A DNA stretch of 64,000 bases, taken from the NCBI GenBank assembly GCA_016183325.1, contig JACPEV010000003.1, positions 82,000-145,999 of the forward strand, given 5' to 3'. The position numbers and the translations under genes are program-made. The notes beneath the pieces are model-generated. The model saw nothing but the letters and a program-made list of their open reading frames with translations, was not told where the DNA came from and searched no databases. Below are positions 1 to 59,363 of the stretch, one piece after another. Source of the DNA: Candidatus Curtissbacteria bacterium. Lineage in GTDB: Bacteria > Patescibacteriota > Microgenomatia > Curtissbacterales > GWA2-41-24. Each line of letters starts with the position of its first letter. Position 1 is the first letter of the stretch.

Positions 1-279
1 AATCTATTACTTTTATATGTTTTCCAATTGGCTATTTCCCCAGCACCATTCGGTGCGGGGCTGGCGTCGGATGGATATGGGAGCGGTAATGTTACAGGTT
101 CTTTTACCTTTCTGATTAAAAAGCTGTTGAAAAGTAAAGTTGCTGCAACGACAAGACAAATAATCGTAAGGCCGATTAGAACAGGTGGGGTTAGATAGCC
201 CCTACTCGCCGTGAAGCGGCGAAGCGGGCCGGTTTTAGTATTCGGGGGAATCTGATAAGAAAACCAGGCGCGCCGCATA
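1..279 (-). CDS. 5' part of a membrane-anchored hypothetical protein (paralog 1 of the MRRxxYLTPPVLIGL family); the gene runs off the window start
   Basis: Positions 181-290 are essentially identical to 1455-1565, so the N-terminus MRRAWFSYQIPPNTKTGPLRRFTASRGYLTPPVLIGLAIICLVVAG with its signal anchor is recreated; sequence below ~170 diverges. Confidence 0.45.
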
Positions 280-408
280 GTTTTATCATCTCACTTTTTG
301 CTTTTTAAAACAAACGGTTATCGTATTAAAAGACTGCATACCAAAATCACGCAATTGCGCGAAATTGGTATGCAGAGGAAGTTTAGGGAATGTATACAAA
401 TATCTGAC

Positions 409-476
409 GATCGTCAAGAAATTGTATAGATTGAATTTATGAAAGAAAAAGTTTTTATTGCGTGTGTTTTTTGATC
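409..476. repeat. 68-bp repeat unit (copy 1 of 3) carrying a fossil of the doc 3' end (…atcaaaaaacacacgcaataa = IKKHTQ*)
   Basis: Identical to 1681-1748 and 1749-1816. Confidence 0.8.
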
Positions 477-2176: not shown

Positions 2177-2397
2177 TTATTGGCCAGCTCTTCTAAAGCT
2201 GGGCGATTTTTCTCGATGTACTTATCGACCCATTCTAAAAAAGCAGGAGTCAAAGTGGTTTTTCGAGCTTTTTTGACAGGCTGAATATCAACTTCAGCAG
2301 ATTGACCAACCTTCAGATTCTTTTCTTGAAGAACCTTTTTGGGAATAATGACGGCTACAGAATTACCGACACGAATTATCTTTTGAATCACGTTCAC
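2173..2397 (-). CDS. phd: AbrB/MazE-fold antitoxin partner of Doc (Phd-like)
   Basis: N-terminus IIRVGNSVAVIIPKKV is a typical SpoVT/AbrB swapped-hairpin; position and 4-bp overlap with doc. Confidence 0.7.
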   Translation of the reverse strand: MNVIQKIIRVGNSVAVIIPKKVLQEKNLKVGQSAEVDIQPVKKARKTTLTPAFLEWVDKYIEKNRPALEELANK

Positions 2398-2449
2398 CCT
2401 GAGTTTGTCGAAGGGTTAGTACAATGTTATAACAAAATTTGGGGTTTTG

Positions 2450-3441: not shown

Positions 3442-4884
3442 ATGAAACGAATTTACATAACCACTGCTATCCCTTACGTTAATGCGGCGCCGCATATTGG
3501 TTTTGCCCTTGAGGCAGTGCAGGCGGATTGCCTGGCGAGATTTTATAGACTTTTGGGATATGACGTCTATTTTGCTTCGGGGACGGATGAAAATTCCCTG
3601 AAAAATGTGCAGGCGGCGGAGGCTGAAGGTTTGCCGACACAAGAATTGGTGGACAAATACGCCAAGCAATTTGAAAACTTAAAAGACGCGCTTAATTTAA
3701 CGTGGAATACTTTCAATAGGACCAGTGCCAAACACCATTTTGATGGCGCACAAAAATTGTGGAATCTTTGTAATAAAGAAGATATCTATAAAAAAAATTA
3801 TCGGGGACTTTATTGTGTTGGGTGTGAAGTCTTTTATGCCCAAGATGAAATTTCTGACGGAAAATGTCCAGACGGGCATACAAACATCGATGAGGTTGAG
3901 GAGGAAAATTACTTTTTTGCTCTCTCCAAATATCAAAGATACTTGGAGACGCTGATTAACACGGATCCTTCGACTTCACTCAGGACAGGTAAATTGCGGA
4001 TTGTACCGAATACGAAAAAAAATGAAGTTTTATCTTTTATTAAACAAGGACTTGAGGATTTTAGTATTTCGAGATCCCGAGAGAGAGCTCGGGGTTGGGG
4101 CGTGCCGGTGCCCGGCGACGAATCTCAGGTAATGTATGTATGGTTCGATGCTCTGACAACTTACTTGACGGCTTTGGGATTTTCGTCAAACGATGAACTT
4201 TATAAACAATATTGGACTAACAATTCCAATCGACTGCATGTTATTGGTAAGGGGATTATCAGGTTTCATGCAGTTTACTGGCCGGCGATGCTGGCATCGG
4301 CAGGGCTTCCCCTTCCCGCGATCGAATTTGTACATGGATATGTGACAGTTGATGGTCAAAAGATTTCTAAATCGCTTGGGAATGTGATCAACCCGTTTGA
4401 TTTAGTTTCTAAATTCGGCGTCGATCCGGTTCGATATTATTTACTTCGGGAAATTCCGGCGTATGGGGACGGGGATTTTTCGATTGCAAGATTTAAGGAT
4501 TTATACAATGGGGAGTTGGCAAATGGGCTTGGGAACTTGGTGGCGCGGGTGGCGCGACTGGCTTCTGATACAAGTCTGAGTTTGCCTGAAAAAAAGAATT
4601 TTAAGTTTAAAAAAACAGTTTCTGATAATTTGAGGATATTTAAATTTGATCAAGCTTTGCTTTCGATATGGGATGATATTTCGCGACTTGATAAAAAGAT
4701 CAATGAGGAAAAACCTTGGGAGCTCGCGGGTAAAAACCTTAAGAAATCGATAACTCCAATTGCCCAAGAGATTCGCGAAATTGCTTTTAACCTTGCGCCG
4801 TTTTTACCGGACACATCGAGGAAAATTCTTGATCAGTTTACGGGGAAAGTTTCGTCCGAAAAGCCTTTATTCCCCCGCATATGA
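3442..4884 (+). CDS. metG: methionyl-tRNA synthetase
   Basis: Class I aaRS motifs PHIGF (HIGH) and KISKS (KMSKS); the N-terminus aligns with MetRS. Confidence 0.9.
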   Translation: MKRIYITTAIPYVNAAPHIGFALEAVQADCLARFYRLLGYDVYFASGTDENSLKNVQAAEAEGLPTQELVDKYAKQFENLKDALNLTWNTFNRTSAKHHFDGAQKLWNLCNKEDIYKKNYRGLYCVGCEVFYAQDEISDGKCPDGHTNIDEVEEENYFFALSKYQRYLETLINTDPSTSLRTGKLRIVPNTKKNEVLSFIKQGLEDFSISRSRERARGWGVPVPGDESQVMYVWFDALTTYLTALGFSSNDELYKQYWTNNSNRLHVIGKGIIRFHAVYWPAMLASAGLPLPAIEFVHGYVTVDGQKISKSLGNVINPFDLVSKFGVDPVRYYLLREIPAYGDGDFSIARFKDLYNGELANGLGNLVARVARLASDTSLSLPEKKNFKFKKTVSDNLRIFKFDQALLSIWDDISRLDKKINEEKPWELAGKNLKKSITPIAQEIREIAFNLAPFLPDTSRKILDQFTGKVSSEKPLFPRI

Positions 4885-5549
4885 AAAAGCAATTTAAGGT
4901 TTTTGCTTGGGATTTCCACGGAACCTTGGAACAAGGGGTTGAAGTAGGATTTTGGCATATTTTGAAGGCTATAGCGAAAAAGCGCGGAATAGCCGAGAAT
5001 TTTAAGTTGTCTGAAGTTAGAAAGCTCTATGGAGTCACGGTTGCCAATTATCTACGGCATTTTTTCCCAGAAAGCAACGAGGCAGAGATTCGTGAAGTGA
5101 TGAAAGACGTGGCAACTATTCAAAATCAATCACATTTAAAAAAATATGTTCGTGCGGCACCTGGAGCAATCGAAGTTTTGGGCAGGATTCGCGCGGCAGG
5201 CCACAAGAATATTGTTCTTTCTAATTCACATCCAGATCACATTAAGCCGCTTATTAAAATTGTTGGCATGGCCGAGTTAATCGATGAGGTTTATGCCATT
5301 GACAGGCACTACACGCACAAGAAATTCGATCCTGTTGTTGAAAAGACAAAAGTTTTAAAGCGAATTAAAAAACAAGACCAGCTCGGTCGCAGTCAGTTAA
5401 TTGCCATCGGTGATCGTGCCAGCGACATAAATGCAGGGATAGCGGCAGGAACGGTGACTTATCAGTTCCTTCGGCGTGGTTTTCCGATTGACGAGACAGA
5501 TGCCGACTATAAAATATATCATTTGAGTGAGATTTTGAGAGAAATTTAA
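4881..5549 (+). CDS. HAD-superfamily hydrolase-like protein
   Basis: AWDFHGTL (degenerate motif I) and IAIGDRASDINAG (motif IV); 4-bp overlap with metG. Confidence 0.55.
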   Translation: MKKQFKVFAWDFHGTLEQGVEVGFWHILKAIAKKRGIAENFKLSEVRKLYGVTVANYLRHFFPESNEAEIREVMKDVATIQNQSHLKKYVRAAPGAIEVLGRIRAAGHKNIVLSNSHPDHIKPLIKIVGMAELIDEVYAIDRHYTHKKFDPVVEKTKVLKRIKKQDQLGRSQLIAIGDRASDINAGIAAGTVTYQFLRRGFPIDETDADYKIYHLSEILREI

Positions 5550-6571
5550 TGTTTGTCGATACCCATGCGCATTTGGATTTCTGTGATGACATTGATGATT
5601 GGATTGAAAGAGCAAAAGAGGCGGGGGTTAGGAAGATTATTAATGTTGGGACTTCTATTGAGGCAAGCAAGAAAAGTGTTGAGATTGCAGAGAAGTATTC
5701 TGAAAATGGATCCCGAATCAAGTTCGGAATGACAAAAGAGGATGACTTTCAGATCTTCGCCTCAGTCGGAATTCATCCTCAAGACGGAAAAGGTGATGTT
5801 AAAAAGTTTGGCTCTTTGCTGCACTGTTTCGAAACGCTGAAGCAAATTGCAGAGTCGTCTAAGAAAGTGGTGGCGGTTGGAGAGACCGGACTCGACTATT
5901 ACTTAAAAACAACTGATCCTTCGACCCATTCGATGAACTCAGGGCAAGCAAACTCAGGACAAACAGCAAGGCAACTGACAACTGACAAGGAAAGGGAATT
6001 TCAAAGAAAACTTTTTACTGAACAAATAAAATTAGCGCGGGAACTAAACTTGCCGATTCTCGTCCACTGCCGTAATGCTTGGGATGAGATTTTCGAGATA
6101 ATTTCAAACGAGCATGATAGTCATCCTGAATTTATTTCAGGAACTAAAAAAAAGATTCCGAAACAAAACCAGATCCCGAAACCCATTCGGGTCGATAAAA
6201 TCAGACAAGTTCGGGATGACATGGTTCGGAATGACAGAGGTGGAGTTCGAGGTTTGTTCCATTCATGGACCGGGGATTGGGAAGCGGCGAAAAAGGCTTT
6301 GGATCTGGGATTTTATATTTCCTTTTCCGGAATTGTGACGTTTAAAAATGCGCCAAAGGTCGCAGAAGTGGCGAAAAAAGTGCCGCTTGATAGAATGTTA
6401 GTTGAGACGGACTCCCCTTTTCTTTCACCGGAACCTTATCGCGGAATGGAAAATGAGCCTAAAAATGTTATAATAACGGCTCAGTTTTTGGCCAAGCTTC
6501 GAGACATTCCCCTTGATACAATAGAGGATGCGACATCGCGGAATACACAAAGGTTGTTTAACATACAATAA
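5549..6571 (+). CDS. tatD: TatD-family metal-dependent DNase/hydrolase with an in-frame low-complexity insertion
   Basis: MFVDTHAHLDF start, HCRNAW, ETDSPFLSPEPYRG; the insertion around 5918-5960 carries the GC-rich repeat words. Confidence 0.8.
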   Translation: MFVDTHAHLDFCDDIDDWIERAKEAGVRKIINVGTSIEASKKSVEIAEKYSENGSRIKFGMTKEDDFQIFASVGIHPQDGKGDVKKFGSLLHCFETLKQIAESSKKVVAVGETGLDYYLKTTDPSTHSMNSGQANSGQTARQLTTDKEREFQRKLFTEQIKLARELNLPILVHCRNAWDEIFEIISNEHDSHPEFISGTKKKIPKQNQIPKPIRVDKIRQVRDDMVRNDRGGVRGLFHSWTGDWEAAKKALDLGFYISFSGIVTFKNAPKVAEVAKKVPLDRMLVETDSPFLSPEPYRGMENEPKNVIITAQFLAKLRDIPLDTIEDATSRNTQRLFNIQ

Positions 6572-6834
6572 ATCCGAAATACGCAGCACGAAATTAGTGC
6601 ATAAAGAAATTAGTTACTGGAAATTAGAAAATTGTAATGGAAAGTAGAAAATAGAAAATGGAGAATAAATTATAACTATTTTCCAATCTCAATTTTCCAT
6701 TTCCAATTTTGCGAAGCAAAACTTCGCTTTCCAGTTTCTAGAAACTATTTTCTAGAATACAGAATTGTTTCGTATTTCGGCCGGGGACTTTTTCCTGGAG
6801 TTTAATACTTTTTCCCGTCTGGGGATCGTTTTGG

Positions 6835-9078: not shown

Positions 9079-9130
9079 ATATTTTGTTGGTTTGTCAATG
9101 TAATGACTTTCTTAATATACTGATTAGGAA

Positions 9131-10687
9131 ATGTTTCCCCTAACAGAGAATTATTTGACGCGTGGTTTTTGGGGTGATGAGGCGTGGACTTCGCTGATTT
9201 CGCAACTTCCGTATTTGCAAATGCTAAAAACCACGGCAGCGGATTTTCATCCCCCCGGATATTACACGGTGGTTGAGCTTTGGTATAAGGTTTTCCCGCC
9301 AACGGAAGTTTCGACAAGAATCGTTTCCATTGTTTTTTACTTTTTGACGATTTTTTTGGTTTATAAGCTTGCATCTCTTCTTATTAATTCCACCTCCGAG
9401 GAGCCCCCTTCGACTGCTTCGACTACGCTCAGTACGGGTTTGCTCAGGGCAAGCGAGCTCACCTCGGAGGTGAATAGGGATAAAGTTGAAGGGTCCAAGC
9501 TCGCACCTTGGGAGGTGATTAGTAAAAAAAGATTCTGGGGACTCTTGAGCGCAATAGTTGTCGCTGTTAATCCAATCTTTTTTACTTATGCGTTTGAAGC
9601 AAGGAACTATACGATGTTTGCATTTGCGTCTGTCGGATCTATTTATTTTTTGATTGGAATTTTGAACAAATCCACCTCCGAGGTGAAAAGTACTCCCACC
9701 TCGCAGGTGACTGGAGGTAAAGTTGAGGAGTCAAAGCTCGCACCTTGGGAGGTAAGTAGGGGTGGTGTTACTAATGTGATCTTTTTTATTCTTTTTTCAA
9801 CCTTAGGCATTTATACCCATTACTACATGTTTTTGACGCTTTTTGCACAGGGATTTTATATTGTACTTTTTCATCGAAAAATTCTTTTGAAAATGATCGG
9901 TATTTATGCAATCATCGGACTTTTATATTTGCCTTGGATGCCTTTTTTGTTGGGACAGCTAAAATCCGTCGGAAGCGGCTATTGGATCGGCCCAATAGAT
10001 GGGAAAACGCACTGGGAGGCAATTTTGCGCATACTTTCTGGAGAATTTGAAAATGGTTTTCGACCATTTTTATTGACACTTTCAATCGGGTTGATACTCA
10101 CAGGATTTTTTCAACATTTAAAAAAGAGGATATTGGCAAAAGCCTACATTTTGATTTGGTTTTGGGCGGTAGTGCCATTTATTCTGGCAACGTTACCAGG
10201 ACTTTCCATTAACGGTTTTAAATTACCCTTTCGACCAATTTTTTTCTGGAGATATTTGATCCCGGCTTCGGTACCCTTGTCGCTGATTATCTTGCAACCA
10301 CTGAGAACACTGAAATTGCAACCACTGAAAATACTGACATTAATCACTGTGATAGCACTGAGTTTGACTATAGATTATCTGACATTGACCCGCTATCCTT
10401 ACACTTTTCGCCAAGTTTATGAACAAAAAGTTTTGCCTGAAATTGCCTCTCGCGATAAAATAGTAACCGTTCTGCCTTCTTTCGCCGAAGTCCTTTACTA
10501 TCGAAATCGTTTTAGACTTGATAATGAACTAATAATTTTGCCAGAGGGAATAGTGCAATTTTCAGGGAAAAGTTTACTAGACGCATATGTGCAAAATGGA
10601 GTTGTAAAAATCGATGACAATCCGGCCGGAAGATATTTTGAGTTGAGACCAGGGCCGAGTATCGAAATGATAGAAAATAGTTTATAG
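9131..10687 (+). CDS. GT-C glycosyltransferase (GT39/ArnT/PMT-like) with two in-frame repeat-element insertions
   Basis: GDEAW DE-motif near the N-terminus and a polytopic membrane body; insertions at 9391-9472 and 9673-9709. Confidence 0.65.
   Translation: MFPLTENYLTRGFWGDEAWTSLISQLPYLQMLKTTAADFHPPGYYTVVELWYKVFPPTEVSTRIVSIVFYFLTIFLVYKLASLLINSTSEEPPSTASTTLSTGLLRASELTSEVNRDKVEGSKLAPWEVISKKRFWGLLSAIVVAVNPIFFTYAFEARNYTMFAFASVGSIYFLIGILNKSTSEVKSTPTSQVTGGKVEESKLAPWEVSRGGVTNVIFFILFSTLGIYTHYYMFLTLFAQGFYIVLFHRKILLKMIGIYAIIGLLYLPWMPFLLGQLKSVGSGYWIGPIDGKTHWEAILRILSGEFENGFRPFLLTLSIGLILTGFFQHLKKRILAKAYILIWFWAVVPFILATLPGLSINGFKLPFRPIFFWRYLIPASVPLSLIILQPLRTLKLQPLKILTLITVIALSLTIDYLTLTRYPYTFRQVYEQKVLPEIASRDKIVTVLPSFAEVLYYRNRFRLDNELIILPEGIVQFSGKSLLDAYVQNGVVKIDDNPAGRYFELRPGPSIEMIENSL
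9391..9472. repeat. 82-bp palindrome-terminated GC-rich element (CACCTCCGAGG…CCTCGGAGGTG), in-frame inside the GT-C gene
   Basis: Exact reverse complement of 37933-38014. Confidence 0.9.
9673..9709. repeat. 37-bp short derivative of the same element (cacctccgaggtgaaaagtactcccacctcgcaggtg)
   Basis: Near-identical to 37587-37623. Confidence 0.85.
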
Positions 10688-10800
10688 AAAGTGGAAAGAA
10701 GTAATGGACATTAGATAATAGAAATTGGACAATTTTCCAGTTTCCATTTTCCATAACCAATCTCTAGTTTCTAAAAACTAATTTCTTTTATGATTTACGG

Positions 10801-15766: not shown

Positions 15767-15873
15767 TTTAAATTTCTAATTACTCTAATTTCTAATTTCT
15801 AAATAATATCCCAATTAATAAATTTCTAATTTTTAGGTCAATTAGAATAATTAGGTTAATTAGGTCAATTCTA

Positions 15874-25828: not shown

Positions 25829-25962
25829 TACAGATTAAAAATAGAGATTAGTTAGTGGAAATTGGTAATGGAAATTAGAGATTAGAAATAAGAAAACTAT
25901 TTTCTAATTTCCATTTTCCATAACTATTTTCTACTTTCTAGTAACTAATTTCTATTATCAAT

Positions 25963-36083: not shown

Positions 36084-36169
36084 CACTAATTTTCAATTTT
36101 TAATTTAAAATTTTTATTGAATTTTTATTTTTTTTAAAATTTTAAATATTTTAAATTTGATTTCAAATT

Positions 36170-38794
36170 TCAAATTGTAAATTTCAAATTCCTGCCAAAT
36201 ATCACCAGACCTATGAATCCCAAACTTATTAAGCTTATCAACAACCCTGCTTTAAAAGTATCCGGATCATAATAAAACCTCACCTCATGCTCTCCGCGAG
36301 TTAGAGGTACCGCCCGAAACGTATAATTTGCCCGCAAAATCTCAGTCTCTTCTCCATCAACTTCCGCCTTCCAGCCAAGGTAATAATTATCTGAAATAAA
36401 AAGCAACTTTGGCTGTAAAGATCTAGTTTTAACAATCACCTCTTGTGATTTATAACTAACAACTTCGACCTCACCTTCTCCAAATTGCGGCGAAATCGGC
36501 GAAGGCTTTTCCAAAATCAAAGAATTGCGAAAATCAAAATCGCTGGATAATAATTTTTGAAAGATCAACTTCCTCCTTCGCCTGTCAATCTCACGAGTCG
36601 TCAAATTAGTCACATCAGCTAAGTTAGGAGGTCCCTCATAACTAGAGGCTAAAAAAATCCTCGCCAGCACCTGGGGATTTTCAAAAACTCCATAGTCTTT
36701 GTGTTCAAATGCTTTCTTAAAATTATTTGCCTCCATCACTTCAAAATCACCGCTTTTGGCAACAACATATTTGATCCCGAGCATATTAAGGAGTCTTCTC
36801 CTGTTTTGATTCTCAATCAGAAATTTCGCATCTCCTACTGCCCCAAGTCCCGCGTCCGATCTCAGATAAAAATCTTCTATGTTGTTACCCTGCATCGCGT
36901 AGGTAAACTCTCCGTAAGAACGGTTATTCAAAGAATCATAACCTTCTGGCCAGAAAAGAGAATATTGGCTAGCAAAATTATTGCCCAAAGCCGCCTCACC
37001 CACCCCCCAGGACCTAGAATACCCCTGGTTATTTTTAAGAAAATCTAAAATCGGAGTTGGCGGAAAAACATACTTTGCTTCCGAAAACGAGAAATATTTC
37101 TGAGAAAAATAAAAAATATGCAAAAAGGCTATCCCCATGATCAAAACTGCAGCTATTTCCCTTCTTAACCAGTGACCAACAGTGCTTGCAATAATCATCA
37201 AAACAGTGGTTGCAAAAACCGCAACCGGCACGACCAAATTCCTAAGCGAAATCACAGCCGTCTCCTTGGGACTAAATTTCAGAAACTCAATATAGGGGAA
37301 ATTGAAAAATCTAACCAAAAGCAGATAAAAAGCTATCAATAAATACGAAAGGCCGAAGGCCAAAATTATTTTAAAAATTTTTCTGTCTCTCCGCAGCAAC
37401 CACTGATCAAACCCAATCGCTCCTAAAACAGCAATACAAAAGGCTGGAATAAACAATATCCTGTTGGCAATAGAAGTTGATAAAAACGGAACCGGCAGTG
37501 AAAGAAAAAGTTTTGACGTTGGCAAGTCTAAGGTAGTTGAAAGTGCAACCATCCCAAAAATCGCCAAAAATATTACAAGTTTATTATCACCTCCGAGGTG
37601 AAAAGTTCTCACACCTCGGAGGTGTAAACCTGTATAGAAAACAGCAAACGTCGCAAAGATCACTGCAGCAACGCCGACAAACATAATCCCTTCGTAATAT
37701 TGCGCTGCCCCACCTCTGAAAAAATTATGAGTAGCCGGATGACCAAAAATGTCTGGCGCCAAAAAGGTCACTATTGATTGAATTGGCAGCAAAAAGCTAA
37801 ATAAAGTCTCGGAAAGAGCAATCGTCGATCTCCCCGAATTAAAATAAAGCTCGGCAGAAGGCAAAAGCTGCACCGCCGCAATTCCCGCTCCTATCAATAT
37901 CCCAAGCCCGGCTTGGAATAGCTTTTGTATCACACCTCCGAGGTGAGCTCGCTTGCCCTGAGCAAACCCGTACTGAGCGTAGTCGAAGCAGTCGAAGGGG
38001 GCTCCTCGGAGGTGGACTATCTGCCAAATTCTAAAAATTAAATAAGCGGCACTGAAAATCAATAGATAGATTGTAGTCTGCATATAGCCCCCTAAGAGCG
38101 AAGCACCGACCCCAAGAGAGATTAAAGCTAAATACTGCCTCCTGTCTGTAGCTAAAAACTTATCAATCGCCCACAAAATTAACGGTAACCAGACAACCGA
38201 ATGAGGCGACATCACTACTTCCTCTCCCCACGTCAAAATAAAAGGGCTAAATCCAAAAGTTATAGCTCCAAAAATGCTTGCCAGCATCGATAGTTTCCCG
38301 TCACTTTTCTTCTTAATCGTCATTCTGGCTTGTCCAGAATCTTTCTTCATTGCGGATTCTGGAGTCGTTTCACTCCCCAGAATGACGTTATTCGATAGGT
38401 TTCTAAGAAACAAATACATAAAAAACGCCCCCAGAATTGTCGGCGTAATTCGCAGTAGATGCCAAAACTCAACCTGCGACATAAAAAATCCCAAAATATT
38501 CAAAGGATAAAAAACTGCAGTCTGAAAATCGGCCATATGAGGGTGTCCCGAAAAGGCAAAGGGATTCCAAAATGGAACGCTACCTGATCGAAAAGCATCA
38601 AGGGTTACCTTGTAAAATGGCAAGTAAATCCGAAGTTGATCCCAACCGGTATTTTTGTAGGGCAGATTCTCTCCATATGGGGCATAAAAACTCACCAACA
38701 AATGTCCATTCAAATTAACCTTCGAAAGAAATATCGGCCAAAAAAGAATCAGAGAAAGAAATGTCAATAAAAGGAGGATTTTGAGCTTCACCAC
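36170..38794 (-). CDS. YfhO-family membrane glycosyltransferase with two in-frame repeat-element insertions
   Basis: N-terminal YfhO region (…FWNPFAFSGHPHMADFQTAVFYP…); insertions at 37587-37623 and 37933-38014. Confidence 0.75.
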   Translation of the reverse strand: MVKLKILLLLTFLSLILFWPIFLSKVNLNGHLLVSFYAPYGENLPYKNTGWDQLRIYLPFYKVTLDAFRSGSVPFWNPFAFSGHPHMADFQTAVFYPLNILGFFMSQVEFWHLLRITPTILGAFFMYLFLRNLSNNVILGSETTPESAMKKDSGQARMTIKKKSDGKLSMLASIFGAITFGFSPFILTWGEEVVMSPHSVVWLPLILWAIDKFLATDRRQYLALISLGVGASLLGGYMQTTIYLLIFSAAYLIFRIWQIVHLRGAPFDCFDYAQYGFAQGKRAHLGGVIQKLFQAGLGILIGAGIAAVQLLPSAELYFNSGRSTIALSETLFSFLLPIQSIVTFLAPDIFGHPATHNFFRGGAAQYYEGIMFVGVAAVIFATFAVFYTGLHLRGVRTFHLGGDNKLVIFLAIFGMVALSTTLDLPTSKLFLSLPVPFLSTSIANRILFIPAFCIAVLGAIGFDQWLLRRDRKIFKIILAFGLSYLLIAFYLLLVRFFNFPYIEFLKFSPKETAVISLRNLVVPVAVFATTVLMIIASTVGHWLRREIAAVLIMGIAFLHIFYFSQKYFSFSEAKYVFPPTPILDFLKNNQGYSRSWGVGEAALGNNFASQYSLFWPEGYDSLNNRSYGEFTYAMQGNNIEDFYLRSDAGLGAVGDAKFLIENQNRRRLLNMLGIKYVVAKSGDFEVMEANNFKKAFEHKDYGVFENPQVLARIFLASSYEGPPNLADVTNLTTREIDRRRRKLIFQKLLSSDFDFRNSLILEKPSPISPQFGEGEVEVVSYKSQEVIVKTRSLQPKLLFISDNYYLGWKAEVDGEETEILRANYTFRAVPLTRGEHEVRFYYDPDTFKAGLLISLISLGFIGLVIFGRNLKFTI
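37587..37623. repeat. 37-bp short palindromic element (copy of 9673-9709)
   Basis: cacctccgaggtgaaaagttctcacacctcggaggtg. Confidence 0.85.
37933..38014. repeat. 82-bp element, exact reverse complement of 9391-9472
   Basis: Direct comparison. Confidence 0.9.
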
Positions 38795-39394: not shown

Positions 39395-39695
39395 ATTTTA
39401 GCACATGCTGCCTAAAAGAGCGTATAAATAAACGGAGCAACGCCGCTAGCTTGGGCAAAAATTAAAAGCAGGCCAAACACTAAAAGCACCACCACAAATG
39501 GGATCAAAAACCACAGCTTCGCTTTCCACAAAAATTCCAAGAGCTCTCCAGCTTCTCCGCTTCTTGAAAAAAATGATTTAAGAAATCTCATTTTTAAATT
39601 GATCTAATTAACCTAATTGCTCTAATTGGTCTAAATAATTTAGAAATTTGAAAATTTTGAAATTAATTAGAAATTAGAAATTAAAAATTAGAAAT

Positions 39696-41483
39696 TTATT
39701 TTATATCTTCTTTCAAAATAATATATCTCTCCAGCGCCAAAATATCCAGTCCGCTCTTACTAAAAGTGTTAAAAGCATCTTCTGGCGAATTAACAATCGG
39801 CTCTCCTTTCAAGTTAAAAGAAGTATTTAAAAGAACATAAACTCCCGTTTTATCTCCAAATTTCTTCACCAGATTGTAATATCGGGCATTCTGTGTCTCA
39901 GCTATTATCTGCAGTCTCCCCGACCCATCCACGTGAGTCACCGCCGGAATCACTTTGCGCATCCCGCGTCTAACTGGAAAAACTCCCAACATAAAATTAG
40001 TCAGATACTGGTGATCAAGCTCATCAAGCTCAAAGTAATCTTTGGCTCTTTGGGCCAAAACCACCGGAGCAAAAGGTCGATAAGGCTCTCTGAATTTAAT
40101 CTTCGTATTGACCACCTCTTTCATCTCTTCCCGGCGCGGATCAGCAAGTATCGACCTTGCTCCAAGTGCCCTCGGGCCCCACTCTGCCCGCGAGTGGAAA
40201 AAACCAATAACTTTTCCATCAGCTATCTCACCAGACAAATAATCGACCAACTTCCCTTCAGATACTATTTTTTGATATTTAATCTTTTTACTCTTTAAGA
40301 ATTTCTCGATCTCGTGCTCACTAAATTCCGCGCCAAAATAACAATTATCCTGAACAAATTGTCTTTTCTTTCTAAGAACCGCATGATAGACGTAAAGAGC
40401 TGCTCCCATCGCCCCGCCATCATCTCCTGCTGCTGGCTGTACAAAAATTCTCTTGAACGGTCCTTTTTGCGCCAATAGTCCATTCGCTACACTGTTTAAA
40501 CCGACTCCACCGGCAATACATAAATTTTCTTCGCCTGTTTTTAGGTGGGCATAGTTTGCCAAATCCAAAATAACCTCCTCGGTAAGTTTCTGGATTGAAG
40601 CGGCAATATCTGCATATTTTTGATTAAGAGCGCACAGATCTTCGTAATTCTTTGGCTTTTCCCCAAAATAAGACGGATATCCTGAAGATCTTGTAAAAAA
40701 ATGCAGATCTCGCGGTCTTGGCTCTCCAAAAAGTTCCACAAATTTCGAACCAAATGCCCTGTCCGACGACTTGTGATATGTAAAATATTCCATCCTCAGC
40801 GCATAAGAACCGTCACCATATCTCTTAACCAGCTTTCTTGCACGATCCAAGTATTTCGGAAGTCCATAGGGAGCCATACCCATCACTTTATATTCACCAT
40901 CATTGACTTCAAAACCTAAAAAGGCCGTAAACACTGAATACAAAAGCCCCAAGCTATGTGGAAACTTAATCTCCGATAATATTTCCAAATCTAAACCCTT
41001 GCCCAACCCAATTGTCGTTGTCGTCCACTCTCCCACACCGTCAAATGTCAAAACGCAAGCACTACCAAAACCGGATGCATAAAAAGCTGATGCTGCGTGC
41101 GAAACATGATGGGCAGCAAAGAGGATTTTGTCACGTTCGACGGCAAGTTTATCGGAAATTATAGAACGGACCCAGAGTTTGTCGGAAAGCCAAGTAACCA
41201 TTGATTTTGCAAAAAACCGATGTGCTTGCGGCCAACTTGCTAAAGAAGATATTAAAATTCTGGTAAATTTCCAAAAAGGTTTCTCATAAAAAACTACAAA
41301 ATCAAGATCAGTTGCAGTTATTCCTGCCCGAAGAAGACAAAAGTCAATCGCCATTTTGGGGAATTCGCTGTCATGTTTTTTGCGACTAAATCTTTCCTCG
41401 GCCGACGCCGCCACCACCCTGCCATCTTTTATTAAACATGCCGCCGATTCGTGGTAGAAACAAGAGATACCTAGAATATACAT
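39696..41483 (-). CDS. NodU/CmcH-family carbamoyltransferase
   Basis: MYILGIS…HESAA start, C-terminal LLNTSFNLKGEPIV. Confidence 0.85.
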   Translation of the reverse strand: MYILGISCFYHESAACLIKDGRVVAASAEERFSRKKHDSEFPKMAIDFCLLRAGITATDLDFVVFYEKPFWKFTRILISSLASWPQAHRFFAKSMVTWLSDKLWVRSIISDKLAVERDKILFAAHHVSHAASAFYASGFGSACVLTFDGVGEWTTTTIGLGKGLDLEILSEIKFPHSLGLLYSVFTAFLGFEVNDGEYKVMGMAPYGLPKYLDRARKLVKRYGDGSYALRMEYFTYHKSSDRAFGSKFVELFGEPRPRDLHFFTRSSGYPSYFGEKPKNYEDLCALNQKYADIAASIQKLTEEVILDLANYAHLKTGEENLCIAGGVGLNSVANGLLAQKGPFKRIFVQPAAGDDGGAMGAALYVYHAVLRKKRQFVQDNCYFGAEFSEHEIEKFLKSKKIKYQKIVSEGKLVDYLSGEIADGKVIGFFHSRAEWGPRALGARSILADPRREEMKEVVNTKIKFREPYRPFAPVVLAQRAKDYFELDELDHQYLTNFMLGVFPVRRGMRKVIPAVTHVDGSGRLQIIAETQNARYYNLVKKFGDKTGVYVLLNTSFNLKGEPIVNSPEDAFNTFSKSGLDILALERYIILKEDIK

Positions 41484-45292: not shown

Positions 45293-45301
45293 ATTTTAGG
45301 G

Positions 45302-45388
45302 CGGAGAGGGAGGGATTCGAACCCTCGATAACCTTGCGGCTATACCCGCTTTCCAAGCGAGCGCACTAGGCCACTATGCGACCTCTCC
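45302..45388 (-). tRNA. tRNA-Ser (anticodon GGA), type II
   Basis: Acceptor GGAGAGG/CCTCTCC, anticodon loop TTGGAAA, long variable arm, T-loop TTCGAAT. Confidence 0.65.
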
Positions 45389-45523: not shown

Positions 45524-46057
45524 CTATTGTCTATCCTCAAATAACAGTTCTATCTTTGCCCTCGCTTTTCTCCACATCTCCTTCGTATCCTTGAAAGTCA
45601 GTCTGTCCTCAACTTCATCAATCGGCAGCCATGCATGATCGGAAACCTCAAACGCCGTCGTCGCATCTCCATCGCTTTTGTATCTCATTAAATAAAAAAC
45701 TACGGTCTTCAAAACCTTTTGTTTACCCGACGAAGCCCTGAGCGACTTGCCCTGAGTTCTATCGAAGGAAGTCGAAGGGGCGAAGTCAGGGCCCTCTTCC
45801 CAATAAAAATACTTCGTTTCTCCAGCCCTCTCAATTATCTCTCCTTTGACTCCTGTCTCCTCCTCAACCTCGCGCAAAGCCGTCTGTTCCTCACTCTCGT
45901 AAATCTCCCGATGCCCCTTTGGGAAATCCCAACCCTTATGCTTCGAATGCTGCGTCACCAAAACCTCAATCCCTCTTGTACCTTCCGTACCTTTTGTACT
46001 TCTCGTACTTTTTCTTATAACGATGCCCCCAGCACTGAAGATCCTTTTAATCGCCAC
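45524..46057 (-). CDS. NUDIX hydrolase with an in-frame repeat insertion
   Basis: Nudix box REVEEETG; insertion at 45731-45794. Confidence 0.8.
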   Translation of the reverse strand: MAIKRIFSAGGIVIRKSTRSTKGTEGTRGIEVLVTQHSKHKGWDFPKGHREIYESEEQTALREVEEETGVKGEIIERAGETKYFYWEEGPDFAPSTSFDRTQGKSLRASSGKQKVLKTVVFYLMRYKSDGDATTAFEVSDHAWLPIDEVEDRLTFKDTKEMWRKARAKIELLFEDRQ

Positions 46058-50237: not shown

Positions 50238-50393
50238 TTAAAGAAAAAATTCATACTTTCAGCTTCAGAAACTCTGCAAAGTTAGAGGAAAGACTAAAAC
50301 TGAATCTGACAGAATTTATCCGAGTTAGAACTAGATGAAAATGCTGTCTTAACGCCCCGATTGGATCATGCTTTTGACCAAAATCTCACTCTG

Positions 50394-50480
50394 CGGAGGC
50401 GGCAGGATTCGAACCTGCGACCGAGTTTCCCCGGTAGTCGTTTTCGAAACGACCGCACTAGTCCACTATGCGACGCCTCC
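50394..50480 (-). tRNA. tRNA-Ser (anticodon CGA), type II
   Basis: Acceptor GGAGGCG/CGCCTCC, anticodon loop TTCGAAA, T-loop TTCGAAT. Confidence 0.65.
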
Positions 50481-50507
50481 CAAGTTTACCCTGAGTTTAT
50501 CGAAGGG

Positions 50508-53571: not shown

Positions 53572-53656
53572 CGGAGAGGGTGGGATTCGAACCCACGGTA
53601 GCTTGCGCTACATTCGTTTTCAGGACGAACGCACTAGCCCACTATGCGACCTCTCC
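53572..53656 (-). tRNA. tRNA-Ser (anticodon TGA), type II
   Basis: Acceptor GGAGAGG/CCTCTCC, anticodon loop CCTGAAA (C33 is unusual), T-loop TTCGAAT. Confidence 0.6.
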
Positions 53657-53661
53657 AAGTG

Positions 53662-53745
53662 CGGAGGGTGTGGGAGTCGAACCCACTCTGGACTTTCGCC
53701 CAGCAAGTTTAGCAAACTTGTGCCTTACCGTCCGGCCCACCCTCC
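53662..53745 (-). tRNA. tRNA-Ser (anticodon GCT), type II
   Basis: Acceptor GGAGGGT/ACCCTCC, anticodon loop TTGCTAA, T-loop TTCGACT. Confidence 0.65.
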
Positions 53746-54731
53746 CAAAATGTATGATTTTTTAAAAAGAAACTCTTTTTAAAATTCCCTGTTCCAATTT
53801 CTTTAAGATAGCTCTTAACTTCGCTTTTATTATATAACCATACTTTATATCTACCATCATTCTTGGGCTTGTAACCTAGGCCCCTTAATCCTTCATGAAC
53901 AAAATCCAGAAGCGGCAAAGATCGATTCGTAAAAACAATCTTTGGATATGAATATAGCTTCCCATTTACTTTATAGCGATGCATCGCAAAACAACCGTCT
54001 GTATCAACTAAACCGCGAATGCATGCTTTAATATATTCAGGCTTCAACAAAATCCATTCTGGAACTCCAACTTGTAAAAGTACTTTATTACCTCTTCTGA
54101 GACCTTTTTGCTCTAGGTATTTTATCAGATTAATACTTGAAACCATAACTCTTACGACTTTCTGAGTTTTATGTCTAAATAGACTTGGTTTTAAACCAAA
54201 AAGTTTCTCTATTAAATCGCGCACATAAAAAACATACTCCTCATCAACTTCACTGTTCAGGTAGATAACACATTGAAAATTACTTAATCCTCCATCACCA
54301 AGTAAAATTCCAATAAATTCTGCTAAATTCTCGTTTTCCTCGGGAATATTTATGTTTTTCGCCAAATTTCCGAGAACTCTTCTTTTTTTAATTCCATTTA
54401 AACCGCCCCTTCTACGTCCTTCAGGAGTGCCCAAATCCCCATGCAATTTAAAACGAACCATAGCACCTTTGCGACATATCTCTAGTTTTCTAGCAAACCA
54501 GCGGTCAATTAAGATTTTCTCCTGTTCTGGAAAGAGAACTTCATATTTTTTTGCAAGCAACTTCACAGCTTCAGAAGGTGGGCACAACTTTTCCCTCCTC
54601 CAATCAAAAAGGGTTCTTCGATGCACACCCACTTCGTCTGCAAGCTGTTTCGGAGAAAAACCACTATTCCTAACTACTCGCTCAAAAAAGTCTCTCTGCT
54701 CTCCAGTTCTAAATAAAACTCTCTGTTTCAC
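53709..54731 (-). mobile_element. free-standing double-motif LAGLIDADG homing endonuclease with an N-terminal HTH; its 3' end runs into tRNA-Ser(GCT)
   Basis: Two LAGLIDADG motifs (LAEFIGILLGDGGL and IRGLVDTDGCF); the last ~12 codons are encoded by the 5' half of the tRNA gene. Confidence 0.75.
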
Positions 54732-59014: not shown

Positions 59015-59363
59015 TTATAAATATTATGACAAAAGATATGATTTGTCAATTATCGAAGACATACGTAACTACTCACCATTCTGATGTTGTAATTATTGTT
59101 CGAGGCTAAAAGCCGAGAACTACAAACAGATTAGACTTCTCGCTTACGCTCGAAGAATACAATCGTATCAGTTATTGTGAACTCTTACAGACATACATGT
59201 TCACTTATCAACAAAATTATTCACTGAGCGAGCGTCAGCAAGTCGAAGTATTCCCCCAGTTATGCCTTCCCTTCGACTCCGCTCAGGGTAAACTAGCTCA
59301 GGTAATAATTATTTTGCAGAATGGTGGATACTTACATAATTAAGTATTAACTTAATTAAGTAA

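Follow-up and report, generated by a model that had tools for sequence, protein, structure and literature searches.

Two 37-nt repeats in a 64,000-nt stretch of Candidatus Curtissbacteria DNA (NCBI GenBank assembly GCA_016183325.1, contig JACPEV010000003.1, positions 82,000 to 145,999; hereafter the window) are members of a family of tiny hairpin-forming repeats that lie within protein-coding genes of Curtissbacteria and other Microgenomates. One repeat is found in each of two genes for membrane proteins, a PMT_2/GT39-like glycosyltransferase (gene 1) and a YfhO-family protein (gene 2), and each gene also contains a longer, 84-nt relative (Table 1). The explanation that we favour for the data as a whole, and regard as probable, is a family of selfish hairpin repeats residing in coding genes, with an inferred history and mechanism of spread that are set out below.

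The feature common to the long and short repeats is a 13-nt arm, CACCTCSGAGGTG, which with at most one mismatch occurs eight times in the window against 0.03 occurrences expected; the starts are at 9391, 9460, 9673, 9697, 37588, 37612, 37933 and 38002, all within genes 1 and 2. The two 37-mers are identical at 34 of 37 positions (92%), much as the original prediction for this region had it, with its second copy moved by one base to 37588-37624. They lie in the sense orientation in gene 1 and in the antisense orientation in gene 2, and they fold into hairpins of -17.9 kcal/mol (z -6.0) and -25.3 kcal/mol (z -5.7), respectively. The gene 2 copy is identical at 36 of 37 positions to an element in the Curtissbacteria record L001. 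The long element of gene 1 folds with -36.1 kcal/mol (z -3.0), and the copies in the two genes are exact reverse complements of each other over 84 nt (100%). The 37-mer had been described as a mini-version of this element, then taken to be 82 bp; the same inverted 13-nt arms do place the two in one family, but the 11-nt loops of the 37-mers and the 56-nt loop of the long element have no sequence in common.

Table 1. Host genes, hairpin elements and other repeats, in window coordinates.
Feature	Position	Strand	Description
Host gene 1, 518-aa GT-C membrane glycosyltransferase, PMT_2/GT39-like	9131..10687	+	ORF, Pfam PMT_2
Long element, loop 1 of gene 1	9389..9472	+	TC, arm 9391-9403 (CACCTCCGAGGAG), 56-nt loop, arm 9460-9472; read as STSEEPPSTASTTLSTGLLRASELTSEV
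63-nt block, copy A	9460..9522	+	Arm, 31 nt, variant arm P' (CACCTTGGGAGGTG, 9504-9517), 5 nt
Decayed 34-nt-class hairpin, copy A	9482..9517	+	Encodes KVEGSKLAPWEV; left arm degenerate: AAAGTTGAAGGG
37-nt element, loop 2 of gene 1	9673..9709	+	Arm 9673-9685, loop AAAAGTACTCC, arm 9697-9709 (CACCTCGCAGGTG); read as TSEVKSTPTSQV
63-nt block, copy B	9697..9759	+	Arm, 31 nt, P' (9741-9754), 5 nt
Decayed 34-nt-class hairpin, copy B	9719..9754	+	Encodes KVEESKLAPWEV; left arm degenerate: AAAGTTGAGGAG
Host gene 2, 874-aa YfhO-family GT-C membrane protein	36170..38794	-	ORF, Pfam YfhO
37-nt element, gene 2	37588..37624	+	Loop AAAAGTTCTCA; antisense to gene; read as HLRGVRTFHLGG
Long element, gene 2	37933..38016	-	Lies the same way round in its gene as the gene 1 copy, other frame; read as HLRGAPFDCFDYAQYGFAQGKRAHLGG
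Second G+C-rich repeat family, doubled forms in long elements	9406-9449 (+), 37956-37999 (-)		
Second G+C-rich repeat family, single copies	2397-2415 (-), 50489-50507 (-), 59269-59288 (+)		Core CCCTTCGAC-N3-5-CTCAGGG
Second repeat family, similar doubled 44-nt form	45736-45779	-	In frame in NUDIX gene, peptide GPDFAPSTSFDRTQGKSLRASSGKQ
A+T-rich intergenic blocks	6603-6754, 10671-10791, 25842-25958, 39597-39696, 15777-15870, 36088-36151		

When one genome per species was scanned for two arms lying 6-66 nt apart, at least 118 loci were found, many of them labelled Curtiss-, Davies-, Beckwith-, Roizman-, Woese- or Gottesmanbacteria or other Patescibacteria. Element lengths span 31-84 nt overall, and among the matches listed for records below 50% G+C (92 elements) they peak at 37 nt (18 elements), 49 nt (14), 36 nt (11) and 34 nt (10). 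The anatomy is that of two complementary 13-nt arms with a constant CAC...GTG foot, enclosing a class-defining loop of 8, 10, 11 or 23 nt, which gives the 34-, 36-, 37- and 49-nt classes; inside each class the loops are conserved across genomes. The loop of the 37-nt class has 11 nt and is A-rich (AAAARNTCTCN-like, for example AAAAATTCTCA, AAAAGTTCTCA and AAAAATCCTCA), and this class is present, without the long element, in about a dozen other genome records among the matches listed. Compared with the gene 1 copy, those of L001, L040 and L022 have 89% identity across all 37 nt and unrelated flanks. The 37-mer is thus not confined to the window, as befits the repeat for which it had been taken, and since it is conserved in other genomes it is a canonical member of the family rather than a local deletion product. 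The element of L040 (3622-3658), from an 'uncultured Gammaproteobacteria' metagenome-assembled genome (MAG), matches that of L001 (7958-7994) together with the displayed flanking bases, and the Gammaproteobacteria labels are therefore not trusted here; several similarly labelled MAGs of 35-46% G+C also contain family members.

The arms vary in concert. Five mutually complementary arm pairs are found on one loop class (CACCTC/GAGGTG, CACCTG/CAGGTG, CACCCC/GGGGTG, CACACCGGGACAG/CAGTCCCGGTGTG and CACCTCCGATGAG/CACATCGGAGGTG), and 8 of the 12 stem pairs are changed on both sides, with the CAC...GTG foot constant. In L177, two adjacent elements with similar 23-nt loops have CACCCC and CACTCC arms, respectively. 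A self-palindromic arm, as might be expected for the site of a dimeric protein, was considered as the conserved feature and ruled out by variants in L103, L189, L200 and L201, in which pairing between the arms is kept and the self-palindromy of the arm is lost; this speaks for a conserved stem and against the site of a protein dimer.

Open stretches of at least 150 codons contain 76% of the elements, as compared with 81% of random positions in the same loci, so that the elements are neither kept out of coding DNA nor enriched in it. Confirmed hosts include MgsA, the γ subunit of ATP synthase (atpG), a RadA-like ATPase, UvrB (uvrB), topoisomerase I (topA), PurL, a radical-SAM enzyme, an M1 peptidase and Ogt. 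The elements read TSEV...TSEV in one frame and HLRG...HLGG in another, the host frame being open throughout; of the host frames recorded, 34 were HL(R/G)G, 30 were TSEV and six were PPR, and both orientations were found. Judged from these intact frames, the elements are translated as additional loop residues. Length modulo 3 was also considered as proof of a translational constraint and rejected: 56 of the 92 elements have a length of 1 modulo 3, but so do 23 of 34 high-G+C chance matches, and this equal bias makes the length only weak evidence.

In the window, the elements are insertions relative to the orthologues, as had been proposed. The product of gene 1 has a 100% match at NCBI among Candidatus Curtissbacteria proteins and keeps every invariant column of a 24-sequence alignment; its 518 aa compare with 437 aa in typical orthologues. 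Its two loop-containing segments comprise 98 and 72 aa, whereas those of most orthologues comprise 51 and 42 aa, the baseline being 57 orthologue loci from metagenomes that reach down to only about 50% identity, with the deepest included. The nearest orthologue, P0004, which lies in the same TatD-GT2-PMT_2 synteny as the window and is 74% identical over the shared alignment columns, has neither gene 1 insert. For gene 2 (874 aa; the orthologues mostly have about 785-830 aa and lack both inserts), both inserts are missing from 19 of 19 aligned orthologues. A further insert, GSETTPESAMKKDSGQARMTIKKKSDGK, missing in most orthologues, was seen in the N-terminal loop of the YfhO protein (window about 38300-38390, minus strand), a loop that in other YfhO orthologues is occupied by G+C-rich inserts of another sequence (RHPELDSGS..., FPRKRESNN...). 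The two loops of gene 1 likewise have different inserts in other orthologues, many of which start with STS(E/G/R/D)ES and end with T(S/P)EV, and further ones read HLRG...HLGG or HPRG...HPGG; these are the same arms in other frames, or arm variants. The orthologues with STS...EV inserts at the first site (site 1) have a common tail, xRKK-RFWG.

Within gene 1, a 63-nt block occurs twice with 84% identity. In pairwise alignment the similarity runs from the exact first base of an arm to 5 nt beyond a third arm, P', and because the block begins at the intact arm and stops just beyond P', the natural copied unit is arm-31-P' plus 5 nt, that is 63 nt or 21 codons; the arm and P' at its ends pair with -21.1 kcal/mol (z -2.4). 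This block underlies the duplicated stretch noticed originally, in that KVE(G/E)SKLAPWEV is encoded twice in the open reading frame (ORF) of gene 1, at residues 118-129 (KVEGSKLAPWEV) and 197-208 (KVEESKLAPWEV). The peptide copies are separated by 237 nt (79 residues) and lie in two different inter-helix loops, and the view that a tandem peptide repeat had expanded one loop cannot be maintained; of the local amplification proposed, what stands is that part of the structure was copied within the GT39-like gene. The repeat is not conserved: neither the distant relatives nor the closest one have it.

The peptide had been explained as a by-product of the 37-mer, but it has a source of its own. The canonical 34-nt element is GAGGAG-TCAAAGCC-CACCTCGGAGGTG, with the peptide STSEESKPTSEV, and the alignment with such elements identifies KVE(G/E)SKLAPWEV as the translation of a decayed hairpin of the 34-nt class. 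The decayed left arm is common to both copies (AAAGTTGA(A/G)G(G/A)G), and the decayed unit has three bases extra; since this arm is common to A and B, the two are copies of each other and not independent insertions. Each of the two loops of gene 1 contains two elements with a common arm, the old, decayed 34-nt-class element downstream and an intact hairpin upstream, the latter being a 34-nt-type hairpin with its loop grown from 8 to 56 nt in loop 1 and the canonical 37-nt element in loop 2. Composites that share arms are also found in L031, L069, L091 and L096.

The origin of the long element is indicated by the orthologous locus L199 (P0007), whose loop 1 can be lined up with the window at each base. 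An identical left arm, TTCCACCTCCGAGGAG, stands there at the same codon, and the right arm with AAT after it is identical as well; a decayed second unit and the same tail, AAAAAAAGATTCTGGGG, follow. Its hairpin loop, however, has 8 nt (TCAGGGCC) as against 56 nt in the window. With an 8-nt loop at the same site, the long element is a 34-nt-type hairpin with an expanded loop, and on this alignment it looks more like the derived form than the original one. The core of the 56-nt loop is a doubled CCCTTCGAC-N3-5-CTCAGGG, a second small repeat family of which further copies lie elsewhere in the window (Table 1). At another site, a YfhO orthologue (L203) has a shorter relative in which CACCAC arms enclose a loop of 32 nt. 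At site 1 of the orthologue P0006 (L201, 4951-5013), the hairpin loop is TCAAAGCC followed by a tandem duplication of CTTCAGGGTGAAC, which is another case of loop growth in a resident element. As the chimeric long elements are 100% identical, the 37-mers 92% and the 63-nt blocks 84%, the copying of the long element was the most recent event, and since gene 1 has the ancestral site, it is more likely that the long element was copied from gene 1 to gene 2.

The history that we favour would begin with an old composite in loop 1 of gene 1, old because it is common to orthologues. The arm-bounded 63-nt unit (arm, 31 nt, P') would then have been copied from loop 1 to loop 2, and the chimeric 84-nt element would have been copied very recently between genes 1 and 2. 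The hairpins would be selfish and non-autonomous, moved or copied by machinery that recognises the stem and the CAC/GTG foot in the way that the ends of REP/RAYT or IS200/IS605 elements are recognised. New copies may often arrive at or beside existing arms, and the survivors would be only the in-frame, stop-free copies in tolerant loops. The data themselves show the repetition documented above, the absence from orthologues, the copies in unrelated genes, the conserved stems, the arm-sharing arrays and the intact frames.

Several points weigh against this explanation. No transposase, RAYT or integrase domain was detected among the 44 window ORFs scanned, and no target-site duplication or target motif was seen next to the window copies or next to 20 copies belonging to the 37-nt class. 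The arm pair has no matches in viral contigs, with no sign of phage carriage; two short Logan contigs, of 7,995 and 3,005 bp, largely overlap the window, and the 7,995-bp one (L204), the one scanned for the arm, is without it. The 56-nt loop and the 31-nt module were not found elsewhere in 1.9 Mb of related DNA, so that their copying is documented only in the window. The set used for covariation was chosen for complementary arms, which makes its 100% pairing partly circular; this objection does not touch the variety of arm pairs found on a single loop type. Translation is inferred from intact frames and not observed, and the AlphaFold model in which the gene 1 inserts form coil between helices (residues 89-125 and 187-209) is modest, with a mean pLDDT of 59.9 and low confidence at 89-124 and 199-208. 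Some carriers are labelled Gammaproteobacteria, and such labels, and hence the taxonomic range, are uncertain. Finally, recombination from arm to arm could yield the same identical copies without transposition.

This last point leads to the strongest rival, in which nothing has transposed: the hairpin sites would be old, gene conversion or template switching via the 13-nt arms would produce the identical copies and swap loops, and the arrays would grow by slippage. The loop-1 site, common with orthologues while its loop differs (8 versus 56 nt), is what such swapping would leave behind, and the common tail of the orthologues with STS...EV inserts at site 1, the composites with shared arms and the failure to detect a transposase domain or a target duplication all fit as well. 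Where loops are swapped at resident sites, gene conversion through the arms has to be taken seriously. As an account of the whole it is unlikely, since none of the 19 aligned orthologues has an element at the gene 2 sites, which marks at least these elements as new insertions and not as converted resident hairpins; moreover, the same classes are found in unrelated genes of many genomes, and 13 nt is very short for homologous recombination.

The derivation proposed originally, in which the 37-mer arose by internal deletion of the 82-bp element and local amplification then produced a tandem peptide repeat in one loop, draws on real observations: the arms are identical, both forms are in the same two genes and the 63-nt block is truly duplicated inside gene 1. 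Its deletion step, however, is already contradicted. The 11-nt loop (AAAAGTNCTCN) has no sequence in common with the 56-nt loop, the 37-nt class with its A-rich loop is an independent and widespread one found in records without the long element, and from the orthologous site the long form is seen to be an expanded 8-nt-loop hairpin, the additional DNA of which is a second repeat family; the distance between the peptide copies, in different loops, adds to this. We regard this derivation as very improbable.

A marginally lower standing is given to the possibility that the hairpins are functional and under selection, as protein-binding sites, as mRNA structures that pace the translation of membrane proteins or as Ser/Thr-rich linkers. 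The covariation of the arms, which preserves pairing, does point to a constraint at the level of the nucleic acid, and both window hosts are polytopic membrane proteins with the inserts in loops; yet presence is sporadic among close orthologues, the occurrence in both orientations and two frames means that no peptide is conserved, the hosts are unrelated and include cytosolic housekeeping enzymes, decayed copies persist and the frequency in coding sequence is that of the background. An artefact of assembly or binning, or a chance similarity of low-complexity sequence, might be suspected in a MAG for which short-read contigs of the same organism are fragmented, but is dismissed in view of the intact reading frames of both genes, the recurrence of the same classes in many independent assemblies and the chance expectation of 0.03.

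Among known systems, the Rickettsia palindromic elements (RPEs) are the closest functional analogue. RPEs are in-frame palindromic repeats in unrelated genes, housekeeping genes included, that are read through as an additional peptide where the fold allows, with several families per genome in bacteria with small genomes (Ogata et al. 2000, via PMC10969869). The window family resembles them in consisting of palindromic in-frame gene inserts that are missing from orthologues. RPEs have about 100-150 bp and one conserved peptide per family (PMC10969869), whereas the present elements have 31-84 nt and read as TSEV, HLRG or, rarely, PPR. Here two frames and both orientations are used, arms rather than a peptide are held in common, arrays share arms and the host is a member of the Patescibacteria; the distinction is drawn by description. 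In size, single-hairpin form and mosaic clustering, the family is closer to the repetitive extragenic palindromic (REP) sequences and bacterial interspersed mosaic elements (BIMEs) than to RPEs. REPs, REPINs and BIMEs are built of single hairpins of about 20-40 nt, lie outside genes, have a GTAG-type head and are moved by RAYT (Y1/HUH) transposases. Common to both are the size, a single stable hairpin, a structure that is conserved over sequence (with compensatory changes in the single hairpin, here in a set selected for complementary arms), a constant foot motif and mosaic clusters in alternating orientation. The location differs, in that all four window copies are intragenic and, in the family as a whole, three quarters of the elements (76%) lie in the long open stretches described above; the head differs too, the foot being CAC...GTG in all variants, and no RAYT gene is among the 44 window ORFs.

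[quoted passage not shown] The 13-nt arms correspond to such terminal inverted repeats; no target-site duplication accompanies them, however, no insertion sequence was seen in the window, a parent whose ends match included, and most copies are below the usual size of MITEs. The mobile GC clusters and double-hairpin elements of fungal mitochondria are short G+C-rich palindromes in A+T-rich genomes that occur in frame in coding regions and nest. They resemble the present family by description, and differ in their organellar, eukaryotic context and unrelated sequence. PARCEL elements are repeats that code for protein and show dyad symmetry; they are believed to spread inside a genome as well as from one genome to another and are often in membrane proteins, but they are tandem 25-residue domains that form whole ORFs and not solitary hairpins in conserved enzymes. 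No report of such elements in Microgenomates or the candidate phyla radiation (CPR) was found in the searchable library. An Rfam search of 9100-10000 gave just a sub-threshold chance match and no family. When every open-frame translation of the long element and module was used as a peptide query, no match was returned, the source proteins themselves included, which makes the search uninformative; a phmmer search with the 51-aa loop-1 insert against cluster representatives returned one repetitive eukaryote-like match, which was rejected as spurious.

A broader proposal has some appeal, although we hold it only tentatively: that the hairpins are a lineage-wide class of ultra-small (31-49 nt), translation-tolerant mobile elements in Microgenomates/CPR, which would be moved by an enzyme that recognises the hairpin foot, would grow arm-sharing arrays and nest other repeats in their loops, and may be a major source of loop insertions, including those in essential enzymes. 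The translation tolerance would have its basis in the frames, most of which are open across the hairpins, and in an arm-plus-loop period that is mostly a multiple of three.

Other repeats were observed in the window. The TatD-like DNase encoded at 5549-6571 (plus strand) has 340 aa, as compared with 265 aa in the syntenic orthologue of L201, and contains three additional in-frame segments (NGSRIKFGMTKE; TTDPSTHSMNSGQANSGQTARQLTT; HDSHPEFISGTKKKIPKQ...VRNDRGGVR) that resemble translations of other repeat families. A G+C-rich island with the palindrome CCCGAGAGAGAGCTCGGG in the coding sequence of the methionyl-tRNA synthetase gene (4073-4130, plus strand) may be another intragenic hairpin. The ORF at 53709-54731 (minus strand) has helix-turn-helix and LAGLIDADG_3 homing-endonuclease domains, and the repeats near it at 45301-45388, 50393-50480 and 53607-53658 are tRNA-gene-like by reading. 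Low-complexity A+T-rich intergenic blocks (AATTAGAAATT, TTTTCCATTTTCC) form direct and inverted repeats between gene clusters (Table 1). At the start of the window (100-476 and 1374-1817), two blocks are repeated about 1.27 kb further downstream, one of 216 nt with 90% identity and one of 141 nt with 100% identity, and 2705-2803 is a third, diverged copy of part of the 216-nt block.

In conclusion, the wider family is a more interesting result than the specific repeat that was first noticed. If our explanation is right, candidate-phyla bacteria with genomes of about 1 Mb tolerate selfish hairpins in coding sequence about as often as elsewhere, including in uvrB, topA and atpG, and many of the odd length differences and low-complexity segments of their predicted proteins, which now break Pfam matches and shorten alignments, would be explained. 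Masking the elements should improve the annotation and orthology calls of these genomes. The family would also provide, beside the RPEs of Rickettsia, a second independent system for studying the tolerance of proteins to random loop insertions, and would lead one to ask what enzyme can move a 37-nt hairpin when the organism has very few transposases that can be recognised.

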